64,000 nt of DNA from Candidatus Levyibacteriota bacterium (lineage in GTDB: Bacteria; Patescibacteriota; Microgenomatia; Levybacterales; UBA12049): contig CAWBPM010000002.1 of NCBI GenBank assembly GCA_963790825.1, positions 97,702 to 161,701 of the forward strand, in the 5' to 3' direction. The notes below the pieces were generated by a model that worked only from the letters and a program-made list of their open reading frames with translations, was not told the origin of the DNA and made no database searches. This document shows positions 785 through 42,634 of the stretch, one piece after another. A program made the position numbers and the translations under genes. Position 1 is the stretch's first letter. Every line of letters starts with the position of its first letter.

Positions 785-1773
<989 letters not shown>

Positions 1774-1806
1774 AAAAAAAACCTGTCCCTACAGGCACTT
1801 TCTATT

Positions 1807-4800: not shown

Positions 4801-5052
4801 TTTATCGACACCTGCTTCTTTATCATGCAAAGAACGTTTAGCGACATAAATCTCACAGCCGATAATCGGTTTAATACCGGCATCTAGGGCTTGCTGATAA
4901 AATTTAATGACTCCGTACATACTTCCGTGATCTGTGATAGCCAGCGCTTTCATATTTAGCTCTTTGGCACGTTTTACCATCTCGCTAACTTTATTTAGCC
5001 CATCAAGAAGAGAGTAGTCAGAGTGGTTATGGAGATGTACAAAATCAGTCAT
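1807..5052 (-). CDS. dnaE: DNA polymerase III alpha subunit
   Basis: 1081 aa. N-terminal PHP domain (HLHNHSDYSLLDG), polymerase core motifs and a C-terminal OB region. Intact single frame. Confidence 0.9.
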   Translation of the reverse strand: MTDFVHLHNHSDYSLLDGLNKVSEMVKRAKELNMKALAITDHGSMYGVIKFYQQALDAGIKPIIGCEIYVAKRSLHDKEAGVDKDYNHLVLLAENNAGYKNLMKIVSVSYLEGYYYKPRTDLNLLQKYHEGLICLSACVNGYVTDPLTRSEDSEAEKRAIKLQEIFGNENFFLEIQHHINVPPQEPANKKLIKLSKKLGIPLVATNDNHYTRKEDAEAQEILLCIQTQSTILDKNRKLSMIDSPDFYIKSAEEMEKLFMDNPEAIENTIKIADRCNVEITLGKWILPVFAVPEGNTPKTYLEKLVKEGMMRRYKEITPEIKERVEYELSVIVGKGYETYFLVVSDFVNWAKGHHISVGPGRGSAAGSVVSYCLNITDIDPFYFKLPFERFLNPLRPSAPDIDLDFADTRREEVIAYVTQKYGEDKVAQIITFGTMEARGSVRDAGRALGMPYAGPDRISKMIPPGWQGHAMTIDSALAQSPDLKHAYDSEEETRKLLDIAKKLEGVARHASVHAAGVVISDKPLTEYVPLQRETNGDKVVTQYDMYTVGEDGVGLLKMDFLGLRNLTIIEETLKFIKQNQGKDVDFHSVPLDDKKTYELLSQAETTGIFQLESAGMRRYIKELKPTNIFDLMAMVALYRPGPMQAIPEFIARKHGRLPITYPDPRLETILQPSYGILAFQDDVLLTVIEIAGYTWLDADKFRKAMGKKIPSEMRKQEKQFIKSAVQRGLSEKKAHEMFELIAPFAGYGFNKAHAACYATIAFRTAYLKAHFPVEFMAALLTAESRGTTGPVKNEKIARAVAECKRLGVPVLPPDINKSNSDFSIENKDGVRFGLSAIKNVGTAAIESILNARKEKPFSSLPDFCSKVNLSSVNKKTMESLIKAGAMDKFGKRAALLIALPEVVAKANQIKKQFLEGQASLFGDEPVDDLSYQAIIEDVDDFTNEEKLNFEKEFLGFYLSSHPQMDNLTYVKSLITHELEFIEGEEAGVVVKVGGIIESLRKIFTKKSGSEMAFLVLGDEKGITAECVIFPRVFEQYKTFLLNDRVVVIEGKLDGRNEKPVIIAEKIYPVDKMLLDLPSNRN

Positions 5053-5101
5053 AAAAACAGTATACGTATTTTCGAGGCTAAATACAAGCAGATGATAATC
5101 T

Positions 5102-6106
5102 TTAAGCGGCCTTGGGTAGAATCGATGTGTAATAGGTTAATCGGGGGTTATCTGACTGAAAAGCAGCTTTAATTTCATCCGAATAGTTTCTTTTTTCTAA
5201 AATTTCGTTACGTCTGCCTGGATCAAATTCTTCATAAAGCTCAAGGATTGTTTCAAAATGTTCAATCTCTAATACCGCTTGAAAAGCTAATTTGCCAATT
5301 CTTGTGTCTCCAAGTTGTTCATTGAGTATTTTATTTACTTCTTCTCTTCCGCTTGCTCCGATGAGTCGTTCAACAGGTATCCTTTCAATATCCCTTCTTA
5401 TTTTAATAAGTTTTACCTCATCATCTGCCAGTTGTTTTAATTCATTAAATATATCAAAAGCAACATTACGGGGATCCTTAGCCAAGTATTCTTTTGCAGC
5501 AGTGACATTTCCCTCTAATGCTGGATCTTCCGAGGTTAACATTGCAATAGACGTAGAAAGCGAAAAATCAGGATCCTGCATTTGTTTAACTTCTTGTGCT
5601 TGTGCCATCGCCTGGCGAATTTGTGCCATTTGTTCACTAGTAGCCCCAAAGATCCATGTTACTGTCTCATCTGCCGCTCCTGTTTGTCGAGTGACGAATA
5701 TTTGGACACTATCGGGCAAGTTCAGCTGAGAAATTGCACTCGTTATACGGCTGGAGCTTTCCAGGATTACAGTGTCGCCAAATTCTCTGTCGTACTTGGT
5801 ATTCGCAGATTTCAGATTATCAGCATCTGCATAAATGAGTGCCCAGCTTGTACCTAAACGAAGTACATTAGATAGTTCGGAAGCCACTCTGATACGCATA
5901 CCATCCTCCTCAATGGGAAGACCAGTAAGAGGATCAATATGGGTTTGTTCAGGTAAATCATTTCGAAAAAAACGTGGTGGAATAGTAAGATTTATACCCT
6001 TACCACGTACCTTATCAATCCAAGGATTTAGTCTTTGCTGCTCTTGAGAAAATGATATTAAATCCAGCGAAGAAGAATCCGCTTCGCTATGCTCAGGGCT
6101 GTCCAT
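5102..6106 (-). CDS. GGDEF-domain protein with degenerate active site
   Basis: DPLTGLP...ALIYADADNLKSANTKYDREFGDTVI matches the start and A-site region of diguanylate cyclase GGDEF domains. The GG(D/E)EF position reads RQTGAADE, so it is probably non-catalytic. Confidence 0.45.
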   Translation of the reverse strand: MDSPEHSEADSSSLDLISFSQEQQRLNPWIDKVRGKGINLTIPPRFFRNDLPEQTHIDPLTGLPIEEDGMRIRVASELSNVLRLGTSWALIYADADNLKSANTKYDREFGDTVILESSSRITSAISQLNLPDSVQIFVTRQTGAADETVTWIFGATSEQMAQIRQAMAQAQEVKQMQDPDFSLSTSIAMLTSEDPALEGNVTAAKEYLAKDPRNVAFDIFNELKQLADDEVKLIKIRRDIERIPVERLIGASGREEVNKILNEQLGDTRIGKLAFQAVLEIEHFETILELYEEFDPGRRNEILEKRNYSDEIKAAFQSDNPRLTYYTSILPKAA

Positions 6107-6108
6107 AA

Positions 6109-7425
6109 TTAGTGTAATTTCTTTTCTAAGCTGCTCTTCACCATTTGCGCATCTATCTTTTTTCCGATCTGTCGCATAACTTGACCGACTAGAAACATAA
6201 TAACAGTTTTCTTGCCACTTCTATAGTCCTGAACTGCTTTTTCCTGCTCGCCAAGAACTTTTTCAATAACGGCTTGAAGTTCTGTCTCATCAATTGCTGT
6301 GTTTGTGCTTGTAGTAAGTATTTCTTTAACCAATACTTCAGGCGAAATCTTTACAGAATCAATCTTTTTATTGATAATAATATTGGCAATCTGCTTGGGT
6401 GTAATTTGTTCCCCCTCTCCTTGAATTACCGCAGCTTCGAAGTAATCAGCAAGTGTCCTTTCTCTCGTCAGAATCTCAGCATCGTATTCAGAGAGGCTAA
6501 ACTGCCTGACGAACCGACTTAATTTTTTTACCGGCAGTTCTGGCACTTGTCCTTTCAATTTGCTAATTTGCTCATCTGTCCAAAGAATCGGGGGAATATC
6601 CGGCTCCGGGAAATAGCGGTAATCATTAGCTTCTTCCTTAATCCGTTGTGACACAGTTACATTTTTAAATTCATTCCAACCCCTTGTTTCTTGAACAGGG
6701 GTTTTGTTATCTCTAAGCATTAGTTCCTGACGATTTAGCTCGAAGTTAATCGCCTTTTCCACAAACTTAAAAGAGTTGATATTTTTTACTTCAACTTTGT
6801 AATTGGGAAGTTTCTTATCATCAAGCGTCAGTGAGATATTCGGCTCAAGACGCATATTACCCTTTTCCATATCGGCATTTGATACACCAAGGTAACGTAC
6901 GACCTGCTGAAGATATTGTAAGTATTCTTTTACCTCATCTGCACTGCGGAAGTCCGGCTCGGTAACGATTTCAACCAAAGGAACTCCCGACCGGTTGAAG
7001 TCAATCAAACTTGCGCCTTCCTCGTGTGTTAGTTTACCCGTATCTTCCTCCATATGCACCCGCGTGATTCCGATTTGTTTACCGCTACTAAGTACTATTT
7101 TCCCCTTTAGACCGAAAGGCAGATCATACTGGCTGATTTGATACCCCTTAGGTAAGTCGGGATAAAAGTAATTTTTTCTATCAAACTTCGAAAATCGAGA
7201 AATCTCACAATCTAAAGCTAATGCAATCATGACACACCACTCAAGGGCTTTAGCATTTGGTATCGGCAACGCTCCCGGTAAGCCGAGGCAGACAGGACAG
7301 GTATGCGTGTTGGGTTTTTGGCTGAAGTAATCAGCAGAACATGAACAAAACATCTTAGACTTTGTTTTTAACTCAACATGAACTTCTAAGCCAATGATAG
7401 GAATGTATTTACTCGTCATACTCAA
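6109..7425 (-). CDS. gatB: Asp-tRNA(Asn)/Glu-tRNA(Gln) amidotransferase subunit B
   Basis: N-terminus IPIIGLEVHVELKTKSKMFCSC with the Cys cluster typical of GatB. 438 aa. Confidence 0.85.
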   Translation of the reverse strand: MSMTSKYIPIIGLEVHVELKTKSKMFCSCSADYFSQKPNTHTCPVCLGLPGALPIPNAKALEWCVMIALALDCEISRFSKFDRKNYFYPDLPKGYQISQYDLPFGLKGKIVLSSGKQIGITRVHMEEDTGKLTHEEGASLIDFNRSGVPLVEIVTEPDFRSADEVKEYLQYLQQVVRYLGVSNADMEKGNMRLEPNISLTLDDKKLPNYKVEVKNINSFKFVEKAINFELNRQELMLRDNKTPVQETRGWNEFKNVTVSQRIKEEANDYRYFPEPDIPPILWTDEQISKLKGQVPELPVKKLSRFVRQFSLSEYDAEILTRERTLADYFEAAVIQGEGEQITPKQIANIIINKKIDSVKISPEVLVKEILTTSTNTAIDETELQAVIEKVLGEQEKAVQDYRSGKKTVIMFLVGQVMRQIGKKIDAQMVKSSLEKKLH

Positions 7426-7503
7426 ATTTCTAATTTCTAATTTCTAATTTCTAAAATTTAGAGACAAAGTCCAAATGTTTAGGTCAATTAGGTTAATTAA
7501 AAA

Positions 7504-8916
7504 TTAGAGTAATTTTGGTCTCTCCTTCCAGACAGAATTTATTTGCTCATACGCGTATCCAACCTGGTATAACCTTTCTTCCGAGAAGTGCGGGCCGAGA
7601 ATTTGCATACCAACCGGAAGATTATCGACAAATCCCATAGGAACAGACAACCCCGGAACACCGGTTAGATTGGCATGCACGGTAAAAATATCTGAAAGAT
7701 ACATAGACAATGGATCATTCATTTTCTCGCCCAGCTTCCAAGGCAGTGTAGGGGAGGCAGGAGTAATAATGACATCAACTTTTTTAAACACATTATCAAA
7801 ATCTTCCCTGAGGAGAGTACGAACCTGCATGGCTTTTTTGTAATATGCATCGTAATAACCGGCTGACAACACATACGTTCCCAACATGATGCGCCGCCTG
7901 GCTTCGTCGCCGAAATATGTTCTGTTATTGCCATAGCGAATTCCATCAAATCTGGCGAGATTAGAAGAAACCTCTGCGGTTTGGATGATGTAATAGACGG
8001 CAATTGCATACTCAGTATGCGGAAGAGAAACATCAATAATCTCAACTCCTAATTTTTCTAAATCTTTAAGTCTCTTTTCCATCATTTCTTTAATCCTCGG
8101 ATCTAAGCCCTCGATAAAATATTCTTTCGGAACACCAATTTTTAATCCTTTTACGCCCTCAGTAATATTTTTTAAATAATCGGGTACTATAGCTTGCGGG
8201 GTAGTAGCATCCATTCTATCTTTGCCTGCAGTTATAGAAAGTAGAAGAGCATTATCGTGAACTGTCTTTGTAAAGTGACCGATACTATCCAGAGACGATG
8301 CCATAGCGATAACACCGTATCGACTGACCCTTCCATAGGTTGGTTTAAGACCAACAGTATTAGTAAAGCTTGCCGGAAGCCTGATTGATCCTCCAGTATC
8401 AGTACCGGTTGCAGCCAAGCACATATCTGACGCGACACTGACAGCAGAACCACTGCTTGATCCGCCGGGAACAAAGCCAAAGTTGTAAGGATTTCTTGTC
8501 ACACCAAAATCGGAATTCTCACCCGATGATCCGTGTGCCCAGGCGTCGCAATTATTTTTTCCGACAATAATTACCCCGGCCTCTTTTAATTTTCTGACCG
8601 CTGTTCCGTCATATTGCGGAATATAGTCCTCAAGGACTTTTGAAGCCGCTGTGGTGCGAATTCCTTTTGTAACAAAGAGATCTTTTATGCCAATCGGAAT
8701 GCCGAGGAGCGGTAGTTTCTCACCTTTCTTTATTTTCTCATCGGCTTTTTTAGCCATTTCCAAGGCCTCAGTTTCTGATACAGTGATAAACGCATTTAAC
8801 TTTGCATTATGTTGTTTAATTCTCTCCAAGTACGCTGTAGTTAACTCCACAGAAGAATATTTTTTCTCCCGTAAATCCTTAATAGCCTGGGTAATAGTTA
8901 AATTTTGCAAATTCAT
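7504..8916 (-). CDS. gatA: Glu-tRNA(Gln) amidotransferase subunit A (amidase signature family)
   Basis: 470 aa with the amidase signature GGSSGGSA and Ser-cisSer-Lys context. Confidence 0.85.
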   Translation of the reverse strand: MNLQNLTITQAIKDLREKKYSSVELTTAYLERIKQHNAKLNAFITVSETEALEMAKKADEKIKKGEKLPLLGIPIGIKDLFVTKGIRTTAASKVLEDYIPQYDGTAVRKLKEAGVIIVGKNNCDAWAHGSSGENSDFGVTRNPYNFGFVPGGSSSGSAVSVASDMCLAATGTDTGGSIRLPASFTNTVGLKPTYGRVSRYGVIAMASSLDSIGHFTKTVHDNALLLSITAGKDRMDATTPQAIVPDYLKNITEGVKGLKIGVPKEYFIEGLDPRIKEMMEKRLKDLEKLGVEIIDVSLPHTEYAIAVYYIIQTAEVSSNLARFDGIRYGNNRTYFGDEARRRIMLGTYVLSAGYYDAYYKKAMQVRTLLREDFDNVFKKVDVIITPASPTLPWKLGEKMNDPLSMYLSDIFTVHANLTGVPGLSVPMGFVDNLPVGMQILGPHFSEERLYQVGYAYEQINSVWKERPKLL

Positions 8917-8922
8917 AATCTT

Positions 8923-9579
8923 TTACCAATTCCTCTGTTTTCCAATTTTCTTCTCAATGCCTTGCGTCTCTTTAACAAAGAAATCGACACCATCAGATTG
9001 CAGGACAATATATCCGGTATTTTGTATTGCCCCAGTCGGAAGTTCATCAAATTTTGCCCAACCAATATGTGTCAGAAATGATCGCATAACATTTCCATGA
9101 TTAACCACTAAAATAGTTTTTCCGGGATAGACAACTGCTATTTCCCGCAAAAAGGTAATTAAACGTATAGCTGATTCCTCAGGACTTTCCATATCAGGCG
9201 TTAACTTAAATTGCATTTTACCTTTATCATCTAAGTCCTTTAGTTTATCTCCCATTTCTTTAAGAAGCTGGTCATTTGTTTTATCAGGATAGTTTTCCAG
9301 GTAACGGCTTGATTCCCGCTCACGAATAGCTCGAACTGTTTGAACGACTAGTTCTCTCTCTTCACTGATTATCTCTGCAGTTCTTTTAGCACGAATTAAG
9401 TCCGAAGAAAAAACTGCATCAAAATGAATATGACTTAACGAAATTTTTCTCCGATAAGTTTGTTTTAGGCCATTATCAGTAAGTTTCGAGCCAAGATCAC
9501 TTTTCTCGTGCGAAAAACCTGCATTACCCTCTGATTCACCATGGCGAACTAAATATATGGTTGTTAGTTTTTTATCCAT
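8923..9579 (-). CDS. histidine phosphatase family protein (phosphoglycerate mutase-like)
   Basis: N-terminal RHGESEGN motif (IYLVRHGESEGN) and a downstream His-containing region (VVNHGNV). Confidence 0.65.
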   Translation of the reverse strand: MDKKLTTIYLVRHGESEGNAGFSHEKSDLGSKLTDNGLKQTYRRKISLSHIHFDAVFSSDLIRAKRTAEIISEERELVVQTVRAIRERESSRYLENYPDKTNDQLLKEMGDKLKDLDDKGKMQFKLTPDMESPEESAIRLITFLREIAVVYPGKTILVVNHGNVMRSFLTHIGWAKFDELPTGAIQNTGYIVLQSDGVDFFVKETQGIEKKIGKQRNW

Positions 9580-9590
9580 ATTTAAAATCT

Positions 9591-10001
9591 CTACTTAGGA
9601 TCGACAGGTTTTTCATCGTTTTCTAATGGTCTTCCCAATGCTCGTTTAAGTGCCAGATTAAGGCGCTTAACATCATCTTTCGTAACCAACTCTTGATCAC
9701 GAAAGTCGCCCGTACACCACGCCATATAGCTCCGACAACTCTTTATTATGTCAGGGTCTGTAATCTCATGAGTTATATCTATAGCCTTGGCAAATCCAAG
9801 ATTAACTTTATGAAAAGTTGTTTTACGAAATTTATTATCTCGATTTAGTGAAGTACTATCCAAGAGTTCTGAAGGATCCTCATTATAAGTATCAAGAATC
9901 TCAATTAGTTTAGGAAAAGCAGGCGTCGGCTCCTTGCCTTTTCTCGGTGATTGTTCTGCTTGTTGGGGTGAATTAGGTCTTTGGTTTTCACTCATCTTCA
10001 A
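9591..10001 (-). CDS. hypothetical protein
   Basis: 136-aa ORF between the histidine phosphatase gene and gatC, overlapping the gatC stop by 14 nt. No recognisable motif. Confidence 0.4.
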   Translation of the reverse strand: MKMSENQRPNSPQQAEQSPRKGKEPTPAFPKLIEILDTYNEDPSELLDSTSLNRDNKFRKTTFHKVNLGFAKAIDITHEITDPDIIKSCRSYMAWCTGDFRDQELVTKDDVKRLNLALKRALGRPLENDEKPVDPK

Positions 10002-10272
10002 AAATTCCTTTCACTCGAAAAGCGCCGTTTTTTACTTTCTTACCATTCGATAATGCTTCAGTTTGCGTAAGAGAGGAAGCTGAAACATCTTCTCTGGTAA
10101 CATTTTCAAGACCAGTAACTTGACTTGTTTCTTTAATATTTTTTGTATCCAGATTAGTCAATTTGTTCACATAATCCAAGACTTCTGATAATTGGCTCTC
10201 GAATTTACTTACCTCTTCAGCTTTGATTGTCAGATTCGCAAGTCTTGCGACATGTTGTACATTAATTTTCAT
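9988..10272 (-). CDS. gatC: Glu-tRNA(Gln) amidotransferase subunit C
   Basis: 94 aa. MKINVQHVARLANLTIKAEEVSKFESQLSEVLDYVNKL matches the GatC family. Confidence 0.75.
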   Translation of the reverse strand: MKINVQHVARLANLTIKAEEVSKFESQLSEVLDYVNKLTNLDTKNIKETSQVTGLENVTREDVSASSLTQTEALSNGKKVKNGAFRVKGIFEDE

Positions 10273-10290
10273 AAGCCTTAGAATAATGCA

Positions 10291-11076
10291 TTATAACCTA
10301 ATACCCAGTTTCCCTGCAATTGCAGCTTGTGCTTTTTCTTCCAGAGTATCATCAAGTTTTGTAAGTGTAATATTTGTTTGATACTTTATTTGCAGCGCAG
10401 TTCTTGTAAGCCAATCTGCAAGCAGTGGATTTTTTGGCAAAAGAGGACCATGAAAATAACAGCCAATGGCATTTTTATAAACTACCCCTTCTGTTCCGTC
10501 CTGTCCATTATTTCCATTTCCTACCAGTATCTTTGCAAAAGGTTTTGCCTTTTCGCCGAGGTACGTTCTTCCGCCGTGATTTTCAAAACCTACAATAAAA
10601 GGTGAAGCAAAACCCCCCGCCAGATTCTTTAAGTAAATCTCTCCTACGGTATTGCCTATCAAACGTGGCTCATTGAGACCCGGATGCTTGGAAATCATAT
10701 CAAAAATTCCCAGTCCTTCAATTTTCTTCCCGATTCCCGGTTCATAATACTTACCCATGAGCTGCGGTGAACCACAAACAAAAAGAGAAGGAGTGTTTTT
10801 TTCAATAAGATTTTTTATTATCTGTCCCTTTTCCTTTTTAAGGTCCCGCATGACGATTTCCTGCTCCCTGTCCTGTGCACCACCACCAAAAAGTAGGTCG
10901 ACAGACTGCAACTCTTTAAAGTGCGTTTCCCTCTCAATTGGAAGTATTTTTACTTGAATTCCCCGCCACTCGCAACGTTTTGTCAGCGAAATAATATTCC
11001 CCCTATCTCCATACGTACTCATCAAAGTCGGATACAGCCAGCCAATACACAATGATAAATGTTTATTCATGTTCAT
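10291..11076 (-). CDS. gatD: lipid II isoglutaminyl synthase, glutaminase subunit (CobB/CobQ-like GATase)
   Basis: Motifs YGDRGNIISL, GGGAQDREQ, FENHGGRTY and CYFHGPLLPKNP match the GatD partner of MurT. Overlaps the murT stop by 4 nt. Confidence 0.75.
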   Translation of the reverse strand: MNMNKHLSLCIGWLYPTLMSTYGDRGNIISLTKRCEWRGIQVKILPIERETHFKELQSVDLLFGGGAQDREQEIVMRDLKKEKGQIIKNLIEKNTPSLFVCGSPQLMGKYYEPGIGKKIEGLGIFDMISKHPGLNEPRLIGNTVGEIYLKNLAGGFASPFIVGFENHGGRTYLGEKAKPFAKILVGNGNNGQDGTEGVVYKNAIGCYFHGPLLPKNPLLADWLTRTALQIKYQTNITLTKLDDTLEEKAQAAIAGKLGIRL

Positions 11077-12368
11077 AATATTTTCTTTCCGCTTAGAATT
11101 TTTCTGACATTCAACATTGCGGTATAGGTAGGTAAGATATAAAGTGTTTCATCCGGCTTCGTTTCTCTCAGTCCCTTAGCAATCGCATCTTTCAAGTCGG
11201 GAATAATTTTTACTTTTTCAAAGTCACTATCTTTTTTCATACTGTATTTAATTCGAAGTGCCATATCATAGACCCTATCCCCGCTGATAAAAATTTGCTT
11301 TGCAAATTCATTTACAATCTCTGTATCGATATCCCAAATCCATGACACATCTCGTCCATCTGCGATTCCATCGTTGAGAACAAGTAAAATATTTTTTGCA
11401 CCCAGTTCTTTAACAGTCCTCAGAGATTCATTAAACCCGGTAGGATTTTTAGAGAGAAAAATCTGTACATTTTTTCCTTGAATCGGCATTATTTCCTGTC
11501 TTCCGAATGCAGGTTTAAATGTCCTCAGGCCGATTTCTATATCACTGTCACTTAGCCCGATTTGTTTTGCTGCCAGTACAGAAGCAAGTGTATTGTATCT
11601 GTTATAGAGACCGGAGAGGGGAAAATGAGAAAACTGCGATAAATTTAGTTTTGGCCGTTTTAATCCGCATTCCGTACACGACCAATCACCAAGATGTGAA
11701 TAATAAATGGATTTGTATCCTAATTTATTTCCGCAGTTCGGACAGTAAATAGAATCAGCTGCATGTTCCTGAGTAAGTTTAGTGGCATCTCTATCATCAA
11801 GACCGAAATAGACAGCATTTTTACTTTCTTTTCCCAAATATGCAATCTGCGGATCATCTGCATTCAGAATCAACCTAGTTTTTTTCTGGTCTGAAATAAC
11901 ACTCTGCCAGTTCTTGGCTACTACATCAACTTCGCCATAGCGGTCAAGTTGATCACGAAAAAGATTAAGGAGAATTAAATAATCAGGTATAATCTCTTTT
12001 AAGAATTGAATAAGCGTATTCTCATCTACTTCAAAAATTACAAAATCGGCATTTATCTTTCCACCAGGGTTTGCATTTAGTAAAAGCGTTGAAGCGATAC
12101 CATTCAAAAGATTAGCACCCGATGAATTATGAATTACTTTTTTTCCGGAATATTCAAGAATTGTTTTGAGAAGAAGTGATGTCGTCGTCTTTCCATTTGT
12201 TCCAGCGACGAGGATAACTCGTAAATTCGACTTATCAACCATTATTTTTATAAAATCAGGATTGATTTTCAACGCGAGATGTCCAGGCCAAGTCGAACCA
12301 TTACCGAGATTCAAAGACCTTGCTATTTTTGAAAACAGTTTTCCAAAGGCAATTATAAGTAAATCCAT
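11073..12368 (-). CDS. murT: lipid II isoglutaminyl synthase, Mur-ligase-like subunit MurT
   Basis: Mur ligase P-loop VAGTNGKTTTSLLL, the MurT-specific Cys4 ribbon CPNCGNKLGY...CTECG, and a DUF1727-like C-terminus. The start is probably the internal Met (MDLLIIAFGKLF); the ORF as listed extends to 12467. Confidence 0.75.
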   Translation of the reverse strand: MDLLIIAFGKLFSKIARSLNLGNGSTWPGHLALKINPDFIKIMVDKSNLRVILVAGTNGKTTTSLLLKTILEYSGKKVIHNSSGANLLNGIASTLLLNANPGGKINADFVIFEVDENTLIQFLKEIIPDYLILLNLFRDQLDRYGEVDVVAKNWQSVISDQKKTRLILNADDPQIAYLGKESKNAVYFGLDDRDATKLTQEHAADSIYCPNCGNKLGYKSIYYSHLGDWSCTECGLKRPKLNLSQFSHFPLSGLYNRYNTLASVLAAKQIGLSDSDIEIGLRTFKPAFGRQEIMPIQGKNVQIFLSKNPTGFNESLRTVKELGAKNILLVLNDGIADGRDVSWIWDIDTEIVNEFAKQIFISGDRVYDMALRIKYSMKKDSDFEKVKIIPDLKDAIAKGLRETKPDETLYILPTYTAMLNVRKILSGKKIL

Positions 12369-12425
12369 AAATATATTATACTTGAGGAATGAAAATATAA
12401 CCATAATGTGATAAAATAGCTGAGT

Positions 12426-12647
12426 ATGAAAGAGAACGAAAGTATAACTAAAGATCGTATTGTGCACGTTTTAAATACACTTTGGCAAGGGGTTGTCTTT
12501 GTTGATAGGAATGTAATAAAAAGACTTTACCGGGACAGAGGAGAAGAAGGAATTCCTGAAGAAATAAGAGCAAAAAGAGCTTTGATATGGCTTAATAAAA
12601 CCGGTGACAAGTGTGTTCAGGAGTCTATAAAAACAACAATAAAGTAA
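12426..12647 (+). CDS. small hypothetical protein
   Basis: 73-aa ORF filling the murT-htpX intergenic gap. Weak RBS and no known motif. Confidence 0.25.
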   Translation: MKENESITKDRIVHVLNTLWQGVVFVDRNVIKRLYRDRGEEGIPEEIRAKRALIWLNKTGDKCVQESIKTTIK

Positions 12648-12671
12648 AGAGCACGACAAACTACCCGCAGC

Positions 12672-13559
12672 TTACATTGACCGGAGAATTTTGATTCTTT
12701 CTTCAATTGGCGGGTGGGTATTGAAAAGTCCGGCTAGAAAATTACTACCCTCTTTCCCCTTAAATGGATTAATAATAAATAGGTTTGCTGTCGCATTCGA
12801 AGCACTTGTCGATGGGGTCGGATCTGAAGAGATTTTCTCAAGCGCACTTGCTAATCCTTCAGGATATCTGGTAAGCAGGGCTCCCTGCGCATCAGCCAAA
12901 AATTCTCTTTTCCGCGAAACTGCGAGCTGAATTAATGTCGCGACAATAGGAGATAAAATTGCAAAAATAATCCCAAGAAGCAGAAATAAGTTATTCCCCC
13001 TGTTATCCCGGTCCCGTCCGCGAAACCACAAACTTTGCATGAACATGTTGGCGAAAATTGCAATAAATCCTACGAGAATAGAAACTACTCCCATTAGGCG
13101 GATATCATAATCTTTCACATGTGACAACTCGTGTGCAAGAACACCTTCCATTTCAACTTTATTTAAGCGTGACAGGATCCCTGATGTTACACAAACCACT
13201 GCGTGATTTGGATCTCTTCCTGTTGCAAAAGCATTAGGAGAAGGATCATCGACAACATAAATCCTGGGCATCGGAAGTCCGTCTCCGATTGACAAATTCT
13301 CGACAATTCTGAAAAGTTGCGGGTTGTCCTCCTTTTTAATCTCCTTAGCACCGGTAGTTGCCAGAACTAATTTATCCGAATAATAAAAGCTGCCGATACT
13401 TGAAATACCGGCGAAGATTAATGCCAGTCCCGCGAAATATAATCCGGATCCGTTAGCTTGTCCGAAGACATACGCTACTGTCGTAATAAAAACGACAAAA
13501 AGCAGCATAATAAGCCACGTTTTCCAAACATTTGCTGAAATAACTGAACGAATGTTCAT
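12672..13559 (-). CDS. htpX: zinc metalloprotease HtpX (M48)
   Basis: HELSHV zinc motif, TM helices and a downstream Glu ligand region. 295 aa. Confidence 0.8.
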   Translation of the reverse strand: MNIRSVISANVWKTWLIMLLFVVFITTVAYVFGQANGSGLYFAGLALIFAGISSIGSFYYSDKLVLATTGAKEIKKEDNPQLFRIVENLSIGDGLPMPRIYVVDDPSPNAFATGRDPNHAVVCVTSGILSRLNKVEMEGVLAHELSHVKDYDIRLMGVVSILVGFIAIFANMFMQSLWFRGRDRDNRGNNLFLLLGIIFAILSPIVATLIQLAVSRKREFLADAQGALLTRYPEGLASALEKISSDPTPSTSASNATANLFIINPFKGKEGSNFLAGLFNTHPPIEERIKILRSM

Positions 13560-13589
13560 AACTATCTATCTTTTTACTCTCTTTTGAGG

Positions 13590-14141
13590 TTAAAAAGATA
13601 CCTTTACTGCTTGTTTCTCTTCTTCTGTGGCAGCAAAAAAATCTGCGGGTTTAAAATTAAACATTCCGGCGATCGAATTACTCGGAAATACCTGCAGCTT
13701 CGTGTTGTAATCCAAAACATTGGTATTCAGAAATTGCCGTGCATAAGCAATTTTATTTTCAGTATCAGACAACTCTCCCTGAAGTTCGGAAAAATTCTGA
13801 CTGGCCTTAAGCTCAGGATATGCTTCAGCAACAGCAAAAAGCGACTTTAAGGTACTGCTTAACGCGTCATTCGCTTCTGCTTTTTCGCCCGTTGTCTTTG
13901 CAGACATCAGACTTGCTCTTGCTTTTGTCACATTCTCGAACACTTCTCTCTCATGTTTCGCATAACCTTTTACTGTTTCTACCAAATTAGGAATCAGGTC
14001 AGTCCGTCGTTTTAATTGAACATCAATCTCAGAAGATGCCTCCGAGATTCGAAGCCTGGCAGTCACCAGACTGTTATAAAGAAAGAATACATAGGCTGCA
14101 ATTAAAAGAATAACTACTACAAAAATAACTGTTAGGGACAT
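13590..14141 (-). CDS. lemA: LemA family protein
   Basis: N-terminal TM, then [44 protein letters not shown], typical of LemA. Confidence 0.7.
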
Positions 14142-14153
14142 ATATTCACCTCC

Positions 14154-15926
14154 TTAATCTTTGAACCATGCAATAAGTTTATTATACTCCATCGTATTAA
14201 GAATGTCACTCTTTGTCGCCCAGCCACGTCTGGCTACAGAAACCCCATATTTCATCAGATTCATTTGTTCAGTTGCGTGGCTATCGGTATTTATTGCCAA
14301 TTTTATTCCACTCCGAACAGCTTCCCTCACTAACGTATCAGGTAAATCAAGCCGCAGGGGAGACGAATTAATCTCAAGCGCTTTATTATTCTCTTTACAA
14401 AACGACATTACTTTTTCAAAATCTAATTCAAATCCCATGCGTTGATTTAAAAGTCTTCCGGTTGGATGAGCGAGAATTTTTGCTTTCGGATGTGAAAGTC
14501 CCGAAAGTACACGCTTGGTCATATCAATTTTATTCATGGAAAAAACACTGTGGATTGAAACAATCGCTCCGTCCAAAAGATCAAGCGCCTCATCGCTCAG
14601 GGCCAGTTTTCCATCAGGAAGAATATCAATTTCGAGTAACGATAGTATACGAACATATTTATTTGTTGATTTTAATTGATCAATAAATTTACTCCTTGAC
14701 TCAATAATCTGCATGACCTGATCTTTGGTGTGCTTAGAGCTGCTTGGATTATGTTCTGAAAACCCTAAATATTGATAATGTAACTCTCCTGCACGTTTAA
14801 GCATTTGTTCCATGGAATTTCTTCCCATATCGTGACTTGGCTCTATGGGGAAGCTTGAATGGATATGGAAGTCACCCTTTATATCCTCAAGTTTTACGAG
14901 ATTTGGCAACTTATTTTTAAGTGCCAGCTCGATTTCTCCTGTATCTTCACGGATTTCAGGCGGAATCCAGGAAAGTCCTATTGCTTTATAGAATTTTTCT
15001 TCCGTATCAAATTCCTGCATTTTCTCCTTCCCGTCTTTTGACTTGACTTTAATCCCGTATTCCGAAAGAGACAAACCTTTTTTTAACGCAACTTCGCGCA
15101 AATGAATATTATGCTGTTTACTACCGGTAAAGTGCTGGAGAAGCGAACCGAACGTACCGGGTGATTGTGTCCGAAGGTCAATTCGTTTTTCGCCACTTGT
15201 CAGAAGCGAAGAATCATTTACTCCAGAGGAGAGAATCCGTTCTTTATATGGATAGGCTGCAAAATGGTTAAGAACAGCCTGAGAATTGTTAGTAGATACT
15301 GCGATGTCTACGTCTCCGATCGTCGATACCATTCTGCGAAGACTGCCAAGCGGATATGCCGTCAGTACGTCAGAAGACTGCTGTAAATATTCAATAATTT
15401 TGGCTGCAAGTTCATTTGCGTAGGGAAGGACCATGCGTACGCTTTTACTTTTGCCTAACTTATATTCCCGGATAGCCTGTAAAATATCTTCCTCCGATTT
15501 TTTTCCGAATCCTGCGAGATCCGCAATTTTGCCTGCCTTGGCAATTTTTTCGACGTCTTCAATAACGGTTTCCGGATGTTTTAAATGAAACTGCAAAACG
15601 AGTTTGTGGGCTTTTTTCGGTCCGAAACTTGGAATTTCAAGAAGCGGAAAAACCGCAGGCGGAATACCTTCTAAAACCCAGTCAAAGTGCTCAACCTTTC
15701 CGCTGCGAAGCAGTTCTTCTATATGATCGGAGATTGAAGGGCCGACACCTGGAATCGCCTGCAGTTTCCCCTCCTGGAAAAGGTCTTTTACCTGCATGGT
15801 CATGTTTTCAATAGCATCAGCCGCTCTGTTATAAGCAATGATTTGAAAGCGAAATTTAGCCTCATCTTTAATGCTATAAGAAACAGCAACATTTCGAAGA
15901 AGTTTGGCAATTTGCTCATTTGTCAT
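14154..15926 (-). CDS. polX: DNA polymerase X family protein with C-terminal PHP phosphoesterase domain
   Basis: N-terminal HhH/pol-beta-like region (GVGPSISDHIEEL, GDVDIAV nucleotidyltransferase motif) and a C-terminal PHP domain (DFHIHSSFP...HPTGR). 590 aa. Confidence 0.75.
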   Translation of the reverse strand: MTNEQIAKLLRNVAVSYSIKDEAKFRFQIIAYNRAADAIENMTMQVKDLFQEGKLQAIPGVGPSISDHIEELLRSGKVEHFDWVLEGIPPAVFPLLEIPSFGPKKAHKLVLQFHLKHPETVIEDVEKIAKAGKIADLAGFGKKSEEDILQAIREYKLGKSKSVRMVLPYANELAAKIIEYLQQSSDVLTAYPLGSLRRMVSTIGDVDIAVSTNNSQAVLNHFAAYPYKERILSSGVNDSSLLTSGEKRIDLRTQSPGTFGSLLQHFTGSKQHNIHLREVALKKGLSLSEYGIKVKSKDGKEKMQEFDTEEKFYKAIGLSWIPPEIREDTGEIELALKNKLPNLVKLEDIKGDFHIHSSFPIEPSHDMGRNSMEQMLKRAGELHYQYLGFSEHNPSSSKHTKDQVMQIIESRSKFIDQLKSTNKYVRILSLLEIDILPDGKLALSDEALDLLDGAIVSIHSVFSMNKIDMTKRVLSGLSHPKAKILAHPTGRLLNQRMGFELDFEKVMSFCKENNKALEINSSPLRLDLPDTLVREAVRSGIKLAINTDSHATEQMNLMKYGVSVARRGWATKSDILNTMEYNKLIAWFKD

Positions 15927-16038
15927 AGACCCAGTCTAGCAAAGGATTGTCACGAGCGCAATAATTTGCTAGAATTACTCTGCCCATAAGTTTAGTTATA
16001 CTTTTGCATTTTCATTTAACTTTGGAACTAAACAATAT

Positions 16039-16112
16039 GGGGTGGTAGCTCAGTTGGTTAGAGCGTCTCCCTGTCACGGAGAAGGTCGCGGGTTCGAGTC
16101 CCGTTCACCCCG
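16039..16112 (+). tRNA. tRNA-Asp (anticodon GTC)
   Basis: Hand-folded cloverleaf: acceptor GGGGTGG/TCACCCC, D-arm GCTCAGTTGGTTAGAGC, anticodon stem TCTCC/GGAGA with loop CTGTCAC, T-arm GCGGGTTCGAGTCCCGT, discriminator G. CCA is not encoded. Confidence 0.85.
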
Positions 16113-16211
16113 CAATACAGGAAATTAAAACGTTACCGGAAATAAATTAGCTCTTGCAATTTCGAAAGATTACTTATATAATCTCAACTGTCTTCTGCCC
16201 AAGTATAAATT

Positions 16212-17057
16212 ATGGCAGCAAGAAAAAAGACTAGTAGAGCTACGAGAGTCACTCCAAGAAAAAAACCTGTTCAAAAAACAGGACTATCAGAATATTTTCG
16301 TTTTGGTGAATCCTACACTATTTTAATACTCGGCATAGTTGTCGTTATCATTGCCTCCATTCTACTTGTCTCATTCATTAAAAATAAGAATATTGGAAAC
16401 AATATAGGAAAAGCAGGGCAACAAATAATGTCACAGCAAACCAGGCAAAGTCTGACTAATACTGCGACACCGAGTGCTATGGCGCAGGCTCTTACTTCAA
16501 CGCCGGAACCGACTCAAGTTGTTACACCAACAACGTCCATTCCTACCATCAGACCTACTCTGGTTCCGACGCATGCAATGCGTTCCACGTTTAAGCCAAC
16601 TCTAAAACCTACGTTGTTACCGACCGTAACAGCAATTCCAACCATGACAATGTCTGAGCAGAATAAAATTCCCGCTCATCTTCCCGGCACATATAATGTT
16701 CAGTCTGGAGATTCGCTCTGGACTATTGCTGAAAAAGAATATGGAAGCGGATATAATTGGCTAGATATTGCCAAGGCAAATAATTTGTCTAATCCCGATG
16801 TGCTTTATGCCGGTACAAAATTGCAGTTACCCAGAGTTCCGACAAGACAAATTACCGTTGTTGCTCAAGCACAAATATCGATTCCAAACAGAATTACCGG
16901 TTCTACTTATACTGTCATTCATGGTGATAATCTGTGGGACATTGCGGTCAGAGCCTACGGCGATGGCTATCAATGGACAAAAATTGCCCAGGCAAACCAT
17001 TTAGCCAACCCTAGGCTCATTTTTTCCGGTAACGTTTTTATCATTCCTCGAAATTAA
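16212..17057 (+). CDS. LysM-domain peptidoglycan-binding protein (N-terminal TM, Pro/Thr-rich linker, two C-terminal LysM repeats)
   Basis: Two LysM-like repeats (YNVQSGDSLWTIAEKEYG...AGTKLQLP and YTVIHGDNLWDIAVRAYG...SGNVFIIP). TM helix at residues ~37-58, then a PT-rich low-complexity segment. Confidence 0.7.
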   Translation: MAARKKTSRATRVTPRKKPVQKTGLSEYFRFGESYTILILGIVVVIIASILLVSFIKNKNIGNNIGKAGQQIMSQQTRQSLTNTATPSAMAQALTSTPEPTQVVTPTTSIPTIRPTLVPTHAMRSTFKPTLKPTLLPTVTAIPTMTMSEQNKIPAHLPGTYNVQSGDSLWTIAEKEYGSGYNWLDIAKANNLSNPDVLYAGTKLQLPRVPTRQITVVAQAQISIPNRITGSTYTVIHGDNLWDIAVRAYGDGYQWTKIAQANHLANPRLIFSGNVFIIPRN

Positions 17058-17117
17058 TCCGGTTACTCCTGATAGTTATTTCTTTTTCTAAATTTTTTGC
17101 TACAATAAGTTAGTTTT

Positions 17118-17188
17118 GCGGGATTAGTACACCGGTAGTATGCTACCTTCCCAAGGTAGAGAAGCGAGTTCGATTCTCGTATCCCGCT
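17118..17188 (+). tRNA. tRNA-Gly (anticodon CCC)
   Basis: Acceptor GCGGGAT/ATCCCGC, anticodon stem CTACC/GGTAG with loop TTCCCAA, T-arm GCGAGTTCGATTCTCGT, discriminator U. Confidence 0.8.
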
Positions 17189-17199
17189 CAAGTATATTG

Positions 17200-17833
17200 T
17201 TAATGAAGTTTATGGAAATAATTGAGCGTGAAGCTGTTTCCATCTTTGGTCACTTTAATATTATAAAAAGAAGTATGTTTAGGCGGTTTGAGGGCGATTT
17301 GGGTAATCATTTTATAATCTGAGGGAATGACTTGCTTATTTGGTAAATTGCTTAAATCAAACCACCTAAGTTCGCCTTCTGAAGAATTAGTAATTTTCAT
17401 TGGTTTTTGAAGTATAACTTCAAATAAAAATAAAACGCAATGCCAATATGGTTGTTTTTCTCTTTTTCCCGGAAAATCTCGTTTAATACTGCCAGTATTC
17501 TCTTTGGTTTAATTTTCAACCCAGTTTCTTCAAATATTTCTCTTTTAACCGCGTCCTCAATCCTCTCGCCGAAATCAGTTTTCCGCCGGGCATGCCCCAA
17601 ATATTCTGAAATGGTTATTTGGTACGCTTCATGAGAAGAATTTTATTGCCACTCATGAGTGGAGAGATGACTATGATCAAAGGATGTTGTGTCATTTGAC
17701 AAATTATAGCAAATTTTAATACTGTGTATTGACGGTTTTTGTATAATTTGTTAGTATTAATCGTGCCCCGTACAAATATTAAAAACAGAAAAACAAAATT
17801 TATATTTATCTCCGGCGGAGTAATTTCAGGCAT
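17200..17833 (-). pseudogene. Nudix hydrolase gene split into three reading frames (pseudogene or indel errors)
   Basis: Three consecutive minus-strand ORFs (17615-17833, 17397-17600, 17200-17400). The middle one carries the Nudix box GERIEDAVKREIFEETG. The pieces abut in different frames. Confidence 0.55.
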
Positions 17834-19382
17834 TGGAAAGGCCTAACTTCCGCTTCAATCGCACTTCTACTTAAAATCTGCCGGTTATAGGGTCGCTCCT
17901 ATAAAATTTGAAAACTATCTCAACCTGGATGCAGGCACAATTAATCCGATTGAGCATGGTGATCCGTTTCTGTGCGAAGACGGAACTGAGGGTGATATGG
18001 ATATGGGAACATATGAAAAATTCTTAGATGAAGACATGGGGAAAAGCAATTTCGTAACAATGGGTAGGATTTACCAAAATGTCATTGATAAAGAGAGAAG
18101 ATTTGAGTATGACGGTGAAGACGTAGAAGCAATTCCGCATATCACCGATGAAATAACCAGGTGTATTTATACCTTGGCGAAGGAAAAAGATGCACAGATT
18201 GTTCTAATCGAACTTGGCGGTACAGCCGGAGAATATCAAAATATATTTTACTATGAAGCTTCCCGAATATTGGCACTTCGTAATCCGGGGGACGTAGTTC
18301 ATGTACATGTCAGCTATGTTCCGACTCCTAGCCATTTGGGTGAACCGAAAACCAAACCGACCCAGATTATCCGTTCGTACACTTAATTCCATGGGAATTC
18401 AGCCTGATTTTATTATAGCCCGATCGGACAGAATGCTGGATAAAAGACGACGCGACAGATTTGCCCTGTTTTGCAATATGCATCCTGAAGATATTATTTC
18501 CAATCCTGATATCGAATCGGTATATGAGATTCCGCTTAATTCTACATGAACAAGGACTGGATAAGCGCATCATGCATAAATTACATCTTCCTTTGAAGAG
18601 AGCCGAAACTGGACCGCTTGGAAGCAATTTATAACAAGAGTAAAAAATCAAGAAGAGAAAGAAATTACGATCGCAATTGTGGGGAAATACTTCGGTACAG
18701 GAGAGTATCAAATGCGTGATTCTTATGCTGCGTTGCTTGATGCCATTGACCATGCGGCTGCGGCAGAAAATGTAAAAGTTATAACTAAATGGGTTAATGC
18801 TGAAAAAATAGAGTCCGCAATAGAAGAAGCAAAAAGTACAAGTAAAGATATTATAGTTAGTTGTTAAGGAAGTTATCGGTGAGCCGAACGGAATAATTGT
18901 TCCGATAGGTTGGGGAGAACGCGGCAGCGAAGGAATGATTGAAGCTGTCAATTATGCGAAGAATAACAAAGATTCCTTATTTAGGATTGTGTTTTGGTAT
19001 GCAGCTGGCGGTAGTTGGATTTGCCAGGGATGAACTCGGATGGAAAGATGCTAACAGTGAGGAATTAGATCCTAAAACTTCCCATCCGGTTATTCATTTC
19101 ATCGCCAACCAAAAAGAATTGATAGCCAGAAGAGCTTACGGCGGGACCATGCGGCTTGGCGGTTGGGAAGCAATTGTTAAAAAGGGTACAAGGGCTTTTG
19201 AGATTTATAAGAAATCTCATGCTTTTATAAATGAGAAAAAAGGATTAACCAGCGAACGGCATCGACATCGTTATGAATTTAACGACGAGTTTGCAAAGGA
19301 ATTAGAAGAACACGGGCTGGTTATTGCAGCCCGATCGGTTAAAGAGAATTTGGTAGAAATTATTGAGCTAGCAGAAATCTGA
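17796..19382 (+). pseudogene. pyrG: CTP synthase gene, heavily frameshifted (at least 8 frame changes) and no start codon
   Basis: PyrG-like segments in alternating frames: [47 protein letters not shown]...DMDMGTYEKF, TQHS-like RSVRTLNSMGIQPDFIIARSDR, KEITIAIVGKYFGTGEYQMRDSYAALLDA, and the glutaminase domain YLGLCFGMQ...ERHRHRYEFN. No ATG precedes the N-terminus. Confidence 0.65.
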
Positions 19383-19519
19383 TCATCCATTCTTTCTGGG
19401 TACCCAGGGTCATCCGGAATATAAAAGCCGACCGCTTAGACCCCACCCAATTTTTATTGCTTTTGTGAAAGCATGTAGTAAGTCTTGAATAATCTGGGAA
19501 ATTCCGCTATAATAACCTT

Positions 19520-19813
19520 ATGATTCAGCTGAATTTTGTTCCCGGAGATATTATTAAAGTTTATCAAACCATTAAAGAAGGAGATAAGACCAGAACCCAA
19601 ATGTTTGAGGGAATTGTTCTGCAAATTAAAGGACGTGGAGAAAACAAGAGTTTTACGGTGCAAAAAATGGTTGGACCGGTTTCTGTTGAAAGAATTTGGC
19701 CGGTAATGTCGCCTAATTTGCAGAAAGTGGTGAAGTCGGGACATATTTATAAAAATCTGAAAAAAGTCAGACGGGCTAAGCTGAATTATCTAAAGATCCC
19801 GAAAACCTCGTAA
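19520..19813 (+). CDS. rplS: 50S ribosomal protein L19
   Basis: GDIIKVYQTIKEGDKTRTQMFEGIVLQIKGRGENKSFTVQKMVGPVSVERIWPVMSP matches L19. Confidence 0.85.
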   Translation: MIQLNFVPGDIIKVYQTIKEGDKTRTQMFEGIVLQIKGRGENKSFTVQKMVGPVSVERIWPVMSPNLQKVVKSGHIYKNLKKVRRAKLNYLKIPKTS

Positions 19814-19849
19814 AATCCTCTTAATTTCTATTTATCCTAACACAAAAAG

Positions 19850-20245
19850 TTGTATACTTGTTTCGTGTATAGAACACTGGATACGAAAAAGCAAATTTCC
19901 GGTAAGCGGGGAGAAGATATTGCAGTAGCGTATTTGAGAAAAAAAGGATACCAAATTCTCGAGCGAAATTTTAGGCTTAGAAACGGAGAAATCGACATTA
20001 TTGCTCTCCACGAGAATATACTTGTCTTTATTGAGGTAAAAACCAGGACTTCTAGATTGTTTGGCACACCACTTGAAGCAATTAGCTTCTTTAAGCTGCG
20101 TTCGTTGGTCCGGACAGCCAACGTGTATAAATATACCCGTAATAATTTACCGGAAGCAATGCGGATTGACGCTATTGCAGTAAAGTTTCTTGATCCTGAA
20201 GGGGTAGATTTCGAAATCGAACACATGAAGAATATTTCTAGCTAG
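19850..20245 (+). CDS. yraN: YraN family endonuclease (UPF0102)
   Basis: [35 protein letters not shown]...VFIEVKTR is the YraN/UPF0102 signature. Confidence 0.7.
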
Positions 20246-22238
20246 GTTTAAGTGTTTTTATTTGGTCTCTGATTCTCATCGCTGTTTCAAAGTCCAGTCT
20301 CTCGGCTGCCAGTTTCATTTCTTTGCGTAATTTCCGAACCACGTCTTCCCGTTCGTCCGGCAGAAGAACCTCTTTGTTACCAAACTCAATTAACTCATCC
20401 AGTGACTCACGTCTCTGTTCTTCCTTTTCTTCTTCAACCAAACGTGCACGGATAGACTTATCAATACTGACAGGCGTAATATGATGCTTCTTGTTATACG
20501 CGGTTTGGACTTTCCTTCGCCTTTCAACTTCATCAATTGCCTCCCGCATGGAGTCCGTTATTCTGTCGGCATACATAATTACTTCAGACTTCGTATGCCG
20601 TGCCGCGCGTCCCATGGTTTGAACAAGTGATGTCCTGCTTCTTAAGAACCCCTCTTTATCAGCATCGAGAATAACAACAAGCGACACTTCCGGCAAATCT
20701 AATCCCTCACGAAGCAAGTTAATGCCAACCAAAACATCAACGGTCCCGAGGCGCAAATTATCCAAAACATCCTGCCTCTCAAGGGTAATAATATCAGAAT
20801 GAAGATAAGCTACTTTGATTTGTTTTTCTTCCAGATAGGCTGTCAACTCCTCAGACATCCGTTTTGTTAAAGTTGTCACAAGTACCCTCTCCTTTCTCTC
20901 GACCCGCTTCAGAATCTCAGAAATCAAATCGGGAATTTGTCCTTTACTCGGCTTAACAGTAATAACAGGATCTACCAGTCCGGTAGGTCGAATAAGTTGC
21001 TCAACGACAGCATTTTCAGCTTCTTTAGCTAAAGATAATTCATAATCATTCGGCGTTGCTGAGACATACACGGTTTGATGGACATGACGCATAAACTCAT
21101 CAAAACGAAGCGGTCTGTTATCCATGGCAGACGGAAGCCGGAAGCCGTAATCAACCAATACACTTTTCCGCGATTGGTCGCCGTTATACATGCCCCGAAT
21201 TTGGGGAAGTGTCATATGTGACTCATCAATCATCAGGAGCCAATCATCTGAGGCGGCATCGAAATAATCAATAAGCGTATACGGCGGATCGCCGGGTTTT
21301 CTTCCGTCAAAGTATGTTGAGTAGTTCTCAATGCCATTTACATATCCAACTTCACGAATCATTTCCAAATCGAAATTCGTTCTTTGCATAAGTCGCTGTG
21401 CTTCAAGAAGTTTACCGGCTGCTTTTAATTCTTCGGTACGTTTCGCCAGATCTGAGCGAATATGACTAAATGCATCGTCATAGGACTTAGGATCAGTCAT
21501 GTAGTGTTTGGCGGGGTAGATAATGGTTTTAGAAATTATCTGAAGCGTGTCTCCGTTTAAGGGACTGAATTCGTATAGTTTACTGATTTTTTCCTCATTT
21601 ATTTCGATCCGAATACCGTTGTCCATATATGCCGGAAAAAGATCAATTGCATTCCCACGAACCCTATATGATCCGCGTCTGAATTCATAATCATTCCGTT
21701 CATATTGTAAGTCTGCGAGCCGTACCAGGATATCCCTTTGGGTAGTTTGCATACCAATTCTTAGCTCGAGAACAAATTTACCATATTCAACAGGCGAGCC
21801 CAAATTATAGATACAGGAAACCGATGCGACGACTATGACATCTTTTCTGGTTAATAAATTTGTCGTCGCTGACAGCCGGAGTTTGTCAATCTCTTCATTA
21901 ATCTCAGCTTCTTTTTCGATATACGTATCACTTTGCGGAACATAAGCTTCGGGTTGATAGTAATCATAATAGGAAACGAAATATGATACGGCATTTTTAG
22001 GGAAGAAATCACGAAATTCCTGATATAGTTGTCCGGCCAGAGTTTTATTATGCGAAATAACCAGAGTCGGCTTTTGAATATTTTGTATAACGTTAGCCAT
22101 GGTAAAGGTTTTTCCCGACCCGGTAACACCGAGAAGTACCTGATCTCTAACATTTTTTTGCAAATTTTCAGTTAATTTTTTAATTGCCTGCGGCTGGTCG
22201 CCGGTAGGGCTAAATTTGGATTTAAGCTTAAATTTCAT
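20238..22238 (-). CDS. uvrB: excinuclease ABC subunit B
   Basis: 666 aa. Walker [11 protein letters not shown], helicase motifs, and the UvrB interaction/UVR domain at the C-terminus ([17 protein letters not shown]). Confidence 0.9.
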
Positions 22239-32222: not shown

Positions 32223-32333
32223 AAATTATTATAGTCTCAACCAACTATATCGGACTGTACCAACTCCAAATAGAATTCTAGTTTTGGTTAAGATTTGCAA
32301 TCCAATCCTATAGCTGATATGTTTCTTGTAATT

Positions 32334-32935
32334 ATGCCAAAAGAATTTGAAGGTATTCTTGTAGCTCTCGAAGGAATTGATAATGGGGGTAAAAGTAGCC
32401 ATATTAATATCCTAGAAAGAAGACTTATAGCAAAGGAATTTCGTGTGAGATTACAAAAGAACTAAGCACACCAGTAGGGGAACTTGTCCGGAAGTATTTA
32501 AGAGAGGGTAATTTTTCTCCGCATCTGAAAACTTTACTTTTTGCAGCCGATAGAGTTGAAAGAGTTGATAAGCAAGTCAAACCAGCACTCCAGCAAGGAA
32601 AAGTCGTCCTTGCTGATAGATGGTCTCTTTCAGCAGTAGTGTACCGAGGCGTTGAGGGATTTGATGCTGAGTATGTTTTGGCAGTGAATTCTAAAACCCT
32701 GCAGCCAAATAAGATTTTCCTTATAGATATACCTGCTGAACTTTCAGTAAAACGGGGCGAATTAGGGAACAAACCACATCCGTATTCGATTGAATTTCTT
32801 GATAATGCAAGGAGACACTATCTTGAATTAGCAGGAAAAGATTCAGACATTGAAGTAATCGATGGAACACAATCTTTTGATGTGATAAATAACCTTCTCC
32901 TTCAACGAATCTTGAAATTAAGAGAGGGTAAATAA
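32334..32935 (+). pseudogene. tmk: thymidylate kinase with one -1 frameshift (pseudogene or 1-nt deletion error)
   Basis: N-terminus MPKEFEGILVALEGIDNGGKSS (P-loop) ends at a TAA near 32461. The rest (ELSTPVGELVRKYLREGNF...LADRWSLSAVVYRGVEG...) continues in the -1 frame to 32935. Restoring one A in TTACAAAAG (to TTAACAAAAG) rejoins the frames. Confidence 0.6.
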
Positions 32936-39514: not shown

Positions 39515-39515
39515 T

Positions 39516-42630: not shown

Positions 42631-42634
42631 TCCT

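Follow-up and report, generated by a model that had tools for sequence, protein, structure and literature searches.

Does the fragmented reading frame of pyrG, which encodes CTP synthase, together with that of the Nudix hydrolase gene beside it, record the loss of two adjacent nucleotide-metabolism genes in a Levyibacteriota bacterium, or does it belong to the deposited consensus sequence? In the window, by which we mean the whole 64-kb stretch of DNA that was analyzed, an intact tRNA-Gly(CCC) gene (17118 to 17189, plus strand) and rplS (19520 to 19813) bound a pair of divergently transcribed genes, the Nudix gene on the minus strand (17200 to 17695) and pyrG on the plus strand (17763 to 19488). 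The first-pass annotation of this DNA described both as broken into several frames and weighed genuine decay, which it favored, against a poorly polished local patch of the assembly.

Six-frame translation and a tblastn comparison with an intact homologue recover a single path of CTP synthase translation on the plus strand, which begins at 17763 and ends with a TGA stop at 19486 to 19488. The path bears out the frame switching described earlier: it changes frame eight times, at about 17841 to 17843, 17873 to 17876, 18366, 18538, 18606 to 18612, 18856 to 18865, 18971, and 19375 to 19377, and its frames, expressed as the coordinate modulo three, run 0, 2, 0, 1, 2, 1, 2, 0, 1. The two switches near the N-terminus, which had been placed within 40 nt of each other, are 33 nt apart. 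It is also true that no ATG precedes the first conserved segment, but nothing is broken here: the gene starts with a GTG at 17763, which lines up with the first residue (Met1) of the closest homologues (beginning MPRT), and this accounts for the missing ATG.

The lesions within pyrG were placed by alignment to 120 intact homologues. At 17840 to 17843 the window reads GGCC and is one base short of the expected GGGCC or GGCCC (frame 0 to 2). An extra A turns AAA into AAAA at 17873 to 17876 (2 to 0; homologues read LLLKSAGY), another stands outside any run at 18366 (CAG-A-TTA, 0 to 1; homologues read KPTQLSVRTLNS), a further one is found at 18538 to 18539 (CTT-A-ATT, 1 to 2; homologues read IPLILHEQG), and GAA has become GAAA at 19375 to 19377 (0 to 1). 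The added A at the first, third and fourth of these four sites sits in a short A run, and the missing base at 17840 to 17843 belongs to a G/C doublet. At 18971 an extra G, outside any run (AAA-G-ATT, 2 to 0), interrupts the segment that homologues read as AKNxKIPYLGLCFGMQ, and a single extra base lies within GTTAGTTGTT at 18856 to 18865 (1 to 2), where the removal of 1 nt gives a segment of the same length as in the homologues P0004, P0006, and P0008. The switch at 18606 to 18612 (2 to 1) can be modeled in two ways. One deletion would produce a residue found in none of the 120 homologues and would put a private Trp at a position occupied by Leu in 92 of them, whereas two inserted bases, three nucleotides apart (GAA-A-CTG-G-ACC), restore the conserved Leu and remove one of the eight private residues of the repaired protein; we prefer the two insertions.

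The tally for pyrG is about eight insertions and one deletion, each of 1 nt, and every frame-breaking lesion in pyrG and in the Nudix gene is a single-base indel. Alignment with the 120 homologues reveals neither in-frame nor multi-base indels in pyrG. Of the 18 homopolymer runs of at least 5 nt in the two genes, not one contains or adjoins any of the 11 indels. In nature, long runs are where frameshift mutations accumulate, and true pseudogenes show a bias toward deletions, with varied sizes. The spectrum in pyrG, made up of 1-nt changes, rich in insertions and avoiding runs, is the opposite of that expected from replication slippage and from the deletional bias of pseudogenes.

Removal of the small indels restores a normally conserved full-length PyrG. 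The matches to equivalog models apply to this repaired translation, the window itself encoding no single pyrG ORF: the repaired protein scores 614 bits against TIGR00337 (cut-off 463; profile positions 2 to 526 of 526) and 630 bits against NF003792 (cut-off 308; full model length). It contains the Pfam domains CTP_synth_N (1 to 265 of 265) and GATase, keeps the catalytic motifs of a class-I glutamine amidotransferase (GLCFGMQ with the Cys, GHPE with the His and Glu), and is 77% identical to intact CTP synthases from Patescibacteria. Among the columns with a conservation of 97% or more in the 120 intact homologues, it retains 256 of 257; the homologues themselves have 0.9 violations on average. 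At thresholds of 90% and 80%, and in its count of private residues, it falls within the distribution of the homologues, roughly in the top fifth. Judged by its amino acid sequence, the repaired PyrG shows no relaxed selection. Had nine indels arisen independently under neutrality, we would expect several times as many substitutions alongside them, with many hitting conserved sites or introducing stop codons, and no such load of conserved-site losses and stops is found in pyrG. Many indels without amino acid decay are the signature of an error process and not of neutral evolution; the density of indels, from which the first-pass annotation argued for real pseudogenes, therefore points the other way.

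An independent consensus comes from the Logan assemblies of run ERR11594402, whose contigs we found by exact-product look-ups of neighboring intact genes. These contigs cover 18.5 kb of the window and match it almost everywhere; they appear to represent the same strain, and literature searches found no mention of the run. Over pyrG there is a coverage gap, with the contigs ending at 17587 and resuming at 19461. Exact-product look-ups with fragments of pyrG and of the Nudix gene and with three neighbor genes gave no independent contig spanning 17588 to 19460, and exact-pattern scans of JGI metagenome contigs gave no match.

The Nudix gene is partly covered by one of these contigs, L002, which overlaps the affected region from 17172 to 17587. 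As previously described, the gene lies in three frames on the minus strand; its lesions are two frameshifts and an in-frame TAA at 17615 to 17617 (KRTK*PFQNIWGMPGG), which had gone unmentioned and is the sole lesion in the two genes that is not an indel. Both frameshift sites are among the differences from L002: at 17577, in the region of the Nudix box, the window lacks a G that L002 has, and at 17461 it lacks a T that L002 has. With the G and the T present, L002 reads as a single ORF of 129 amino acids to the contig end. L002 contains GKLDFGEKIEDAVKREIFEETGL, which matches the Nudix box pattern Gx5Ex7REUxEExGU, and repair of the frames uncovers the same box (GKxDFGExIEDAVKREIFEETGL) in the window. 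The repaired protein scores 68 bits against the Pfam NUDIX model (PF00293), and none of the specific Nudix subfamily models reached its cut-off with this protein.

Frameshifts also occur well away from these two genes. The first-pass annotation was right that dnaE (1807 to 5052), uvrB (20238 to 22238), and a pilB-like gene (39902 to 41584) are uninterrupted in the window, but the remainder is not as clean as it had assumed: tmk, an acs-like gene for an AMP-binding enzyme, and ppsA each contain one 1-nt frameshift, spotted through unusually long gaps between ORFs and confirmed with Pfam. In tmk (about 32299 to 32932, plus strand) the window has AAA at 32432 versus AAAA in contig L083, which encodes an intact Thymidylate_kin protein of 205 amino acids. 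In the acs-like gene (34599 to 36252, minus strand) an extra base at 34854, inside AMP-binding_C, splits the product into ORFs of 490 and 86 amino acids, and L083 stops at 34853, adjoining the extra base. In ppsA (36735 to 39006, minus strand) an extra C at 37944 splits PPDK_N from PEP-utilizers; contig L085 does not have this base and is otherwise identical to the window over 7.3 kb. The offending bases in all three genes had been predicted from protein homology ahead of the comparison with Logan. Wherever a frameshift of the window can be tested against the Logan contigs it is absent from them, in four of four cases (the two in the Nudix gene, tmk, and ppsA).

The comparison contigs carry errors too. 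Contig L084 has a private 1-nt deletion in uvrB (TTT to TT at its position 305, which is 21200 in the window) that splits the gene, and it differs from the window a second time within uvrB, at its position 543 (21439 in the window; Arg267His). Each consensus thus breaks a different housekeeping gene, which argues for noisy calls of one population and not for two evolving strains.

The differences between the two consensus sequences are strongly clustered. Outside the region around pyrG and the Nudix gene we count four in 18.1 kb (32432, 37944, 21200, and 21439), or 0.22 per kb. Within it, the 420 nt covered by Logan contain six, or 14 per kb, which is about 65-fold more and corresponds to a divergence of about 1.4% in the comparable part. 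The patch of dense differences, as delimited by the first and last difference observed relative to the Logan contigs, extends from 17172 to 19464. Among the 14 indels in the 64-kb window, 11 fall within 1.9 kb (binomial P about 6e-15), a distribution that is highly non-random.

The ends of the Logan contigs cluster as well. Four of them end no more than about 32 nt, or roughly one k-mer, away from a position at which they differ from the window: L002 at 17587 (difference at 17577), L001 at 19461 (19464), L083 at 34853 (34854), and L085 at 37912 (37944). That contigs end beside variant sites suggests that both variants occur among the reads of ERR11594402, which fits recurrent read errors and would also fit a real, low-frequency polymorphism. 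The protein database, searched with the full-length PyrG, with a 106-amino acid piece over three junctions, and with the N-terminal 308 amino acids (apparently among targets of up to about 1.75 times the query length), yielded no near-identical copy, intact or fragmented; the best match is 77 to 80% identical. Together with the break between 17587 and 19461, the missing near-identical product indicates that the reads of this run, too, are fragmented or heterogeneous here. The same database holds many short CTP synthase fragments of about 80 to 170 amino acids (P0126 to P0136 among others) on contigs of tens to hundreds of kb, a sign that the splitting of pyrG by frameshifts may be common among other metagenome assemblies.

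Taken as a whole, the evidence supports the reading that had been the less favored one. Very probably pyrG and the Nudix gene are intact, and the window contains a locally low-coverage, mixed-haplotype, or unpolished patch of the assembly. Both genes would then be functional in the organism, a Levyibacteriota-type Patescibacterium, and the consensus would carry 1-nt errors of two kinds, those scattered over tmk, acs, and ppsA and those in a dense 2.3-kb patch of roughly raw-read quality, which probably rests on a small number of reads or on a minor haplotype. We infer that the nine indels in pyrG have the same origin as the errors in the Nudix gene, tmk, and ppsA. The local cause would be technical; a drop in coverage, variants of strains that occur together, the assignment of reads to an alternative contig at polishing, or a former contig end are all possible.

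A separate possibility, which does not exclude an artifactual origin of the indels and which we regard as rather unlikely, is that the Nudix stop codon or the haplotype of the patch is real. In this mixed case the indels would be errors, the patch would represent a real divergent haplotype with about 1% substitutions, and the TAA would be genuine, so that only the Nudix gene would be a pseudogene. The four substitutions relative to Logan in the patch are all transitions. One affects a loop purine of tRNA-Gly (T-loop purine 57, at the left edge of the patch; 17172 is G in the window and A in L002), two are silent, and the fourth is a conservative Arg/Lys exchange. That they are transitions only, and mostly silent, hints that the patch in the window may derive from a minor haplotype. 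However, there are just four of them, silent transitions are not rare by chance, and a consensus of noisy reads also yields substitution errors, transitions included. The TAA at 17615 to 17617, which lies 28 nt past the end of L002, cannot be produced by a single indel and is thus the only lesion that indels leave unexplained; either a substitution error or a genuine nonsense mutation may lie behind it. In relatives the Nudix gene is neither syntenic nor conserved beside pyrG. It may therefore be dispensable, and for the same reason synteny is uninformative on the position of the TAA. Against a decayed gene stands the remainder of the Nudix protein, which is conserved and has a complete Nudix box.

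An alternative explanation, which we consider very unlikely, is that the lesions reflect genuine and very recent pseudogenization: the sequenced strain would have lost pyrG and the Nudix gene, along with tmk, acs, and ppsA, and would salvage cytidine nucleotides, and the Logan contigs would represent an intact, co-occurring sister strain. Patescibacteria are reduced and host-dependent, the deposited sequence does carry these lesions and concentrates them strongly in two adjacent nucleotide-metabolism genes, the Nudix gene has its in-frame TAA, the transition-only and mostly silent substitutions of the patch point to a distinct haplotype, and the breaks of the Logan contigs at variant sites suggest two alleles in the reads. 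However, the spectrum of the lesions does not fit. The nine indels in pyrG leave the conserved residues in place, and their ratio to substitutions is far above that known from neutral evolution in bacteria; all are 1 nt long, biased toward insertions, and off every long homopolymer. Signs of relaxed selection amount to one changed column out of 257 in PyrG and one nonsense codon in the Nudix gene, with insertions outnumbering deletions. The flanks match the supposed sister strain over 18 kb with one substitution only, which leaves no time for decay. The lesions in tmk and ppsA and the Nudix frameshifts, where Logan covers the sites, are not reproduced, and the supposedly intact Logan strain would itself have a broken uvrB. 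Tmk is normally essential, so a frameshift in its gene would normally be lethal. The comparison with related genomes also speaks against decay: each of the 80 related loci fetched from GTDB species representatives (Levyibacteriota, Microgenomates, and other Patescibacteria, all at no more than 76% identity) has an unbroken pyrG, and the 120 best database proteins are likewise intact.

The indels could also be real and stem from one event, if a tract of about 2 kb by tRNA-Gly had been resynthesized by an error-prone polymerase in a localized mutation shower accompanying repair or recombination; we rate this as highly improbable. Were it true, pyrG and the Nudix gene would have been killed at once in one Levyibacteriota strain, which would survive on cytidine nucleotides from its host or community. 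Programmed recoding, in which ribosomal frameshifting or transcriptional slippage bypasses the frame changes, has a negligible chance of being correct, as nothing specific favors it, and it would need eight or nine shifts, in both directions, within one gene and with no slippery runs, at sites that have no counterpart in the 200 homologues or loci compared, the orthologues being encoded in a single frame, and that are absent from the Logan consensus wherever this can be tested.

Several features of the wider window deserve mention in their own right. Only minus-strand genes are found from 159 to 15926 and only plus-strand genes from 16212 to 20245, and the cumulative GC skew reaches its lowest value at about 16 to 17 kb; the layout at about 15900 to 16200, just upstream of the patch, resembles a replication origin or the join or rotation point of a circular contig. 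Beyond chance-level repeats and two tRNAs, the window contains no repeats or structured RNAs that would explain a misjoin or recoding, and no second copy of pyrG is found within its 64 kb. We also weighed an alternative genetic code and dismissed it, as the lesions are frame changes, the lone in-frame stop is TAA, and the neighboring genes end normally under code 11. From 39113 to 45196, genes for an Hpt protein and a response regulator precede a cluster resembling a type IV pilus or type II secretion system, which encodes an MshEN/T2SSE ATPase, a T2SSF platform protein, and a number of small proteins that match no Pfam family; all these genes are intact and identical in L085.

Taken at face value, the window would document the loss of CTP synthesis (pyrG) and of dTMP kinase (tmk) in a bacterium of the candidate phyla radiation, and would feed false calls of auxotrophy into metabolic reconstructions of symbiont lifestyles. 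The value of recognizing a consensus artifact lies mainly in quality control. Since frameshift errors are scattered over the contig and at least one patch of it is unpolished, its apparent pseudogenes should not be interpreted biologically before it has been re-polished.

Among known systems, programmed frameshifting of the prfB or dnaX type shares with this locus an out-of-frame gene that apparently still encodes one protein, and one published analysis makes the case that certain genes which look like frameshifted pseudogenes remain functional (PMC11017572). However, genes of the prfB and dnaX type have one conserved slippery site common to orthologues, whereas here there are eight or nine unconserved sites in both directions. 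The reductive pseudogenization seen in Mycobacterium leprae and in recently host-restricted insect symbionts is similar in that frameshifted biosynthetic genes stand beside intact informational genes, and the lineage, Patescibacteria, is likewise one of reduced metabolism. In genes that are truly decaying, frameshifts occur together with nonsense and missense changes and with larger deletions, and conserved residues are lost; a deletional bias in bacteria was reportedly described by Mira, Ochman, and Moran in 2001. In contrast, the lesions described here are 1 nt long and mostly insertions, and nearly all conserved columns (256 of 257) are kept. The closest likeness is to the errors of noisy-read assemblies, in which 1-nt indels split well-conserved genes, isolated frameshifts appear in housekeeping genes, and both are gone from an independent consensus. 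Errors in Nanopore consensus sequences are classically concentrated in long homopolymers, whereas the 11 indels described here all fall outside runs of at least 5 nt and are crowded into 2 kb. Gene-fragmenting indels are described as an artifact of long-read or noisy-read assemblies in three reports (PMC12007338, PMC9262707, 10.1101/2021.08.23.457338), and the patch over pyrG and the Nudix gene resembles a locally unpolished stretch of raw-read quality more than the usual residual error.
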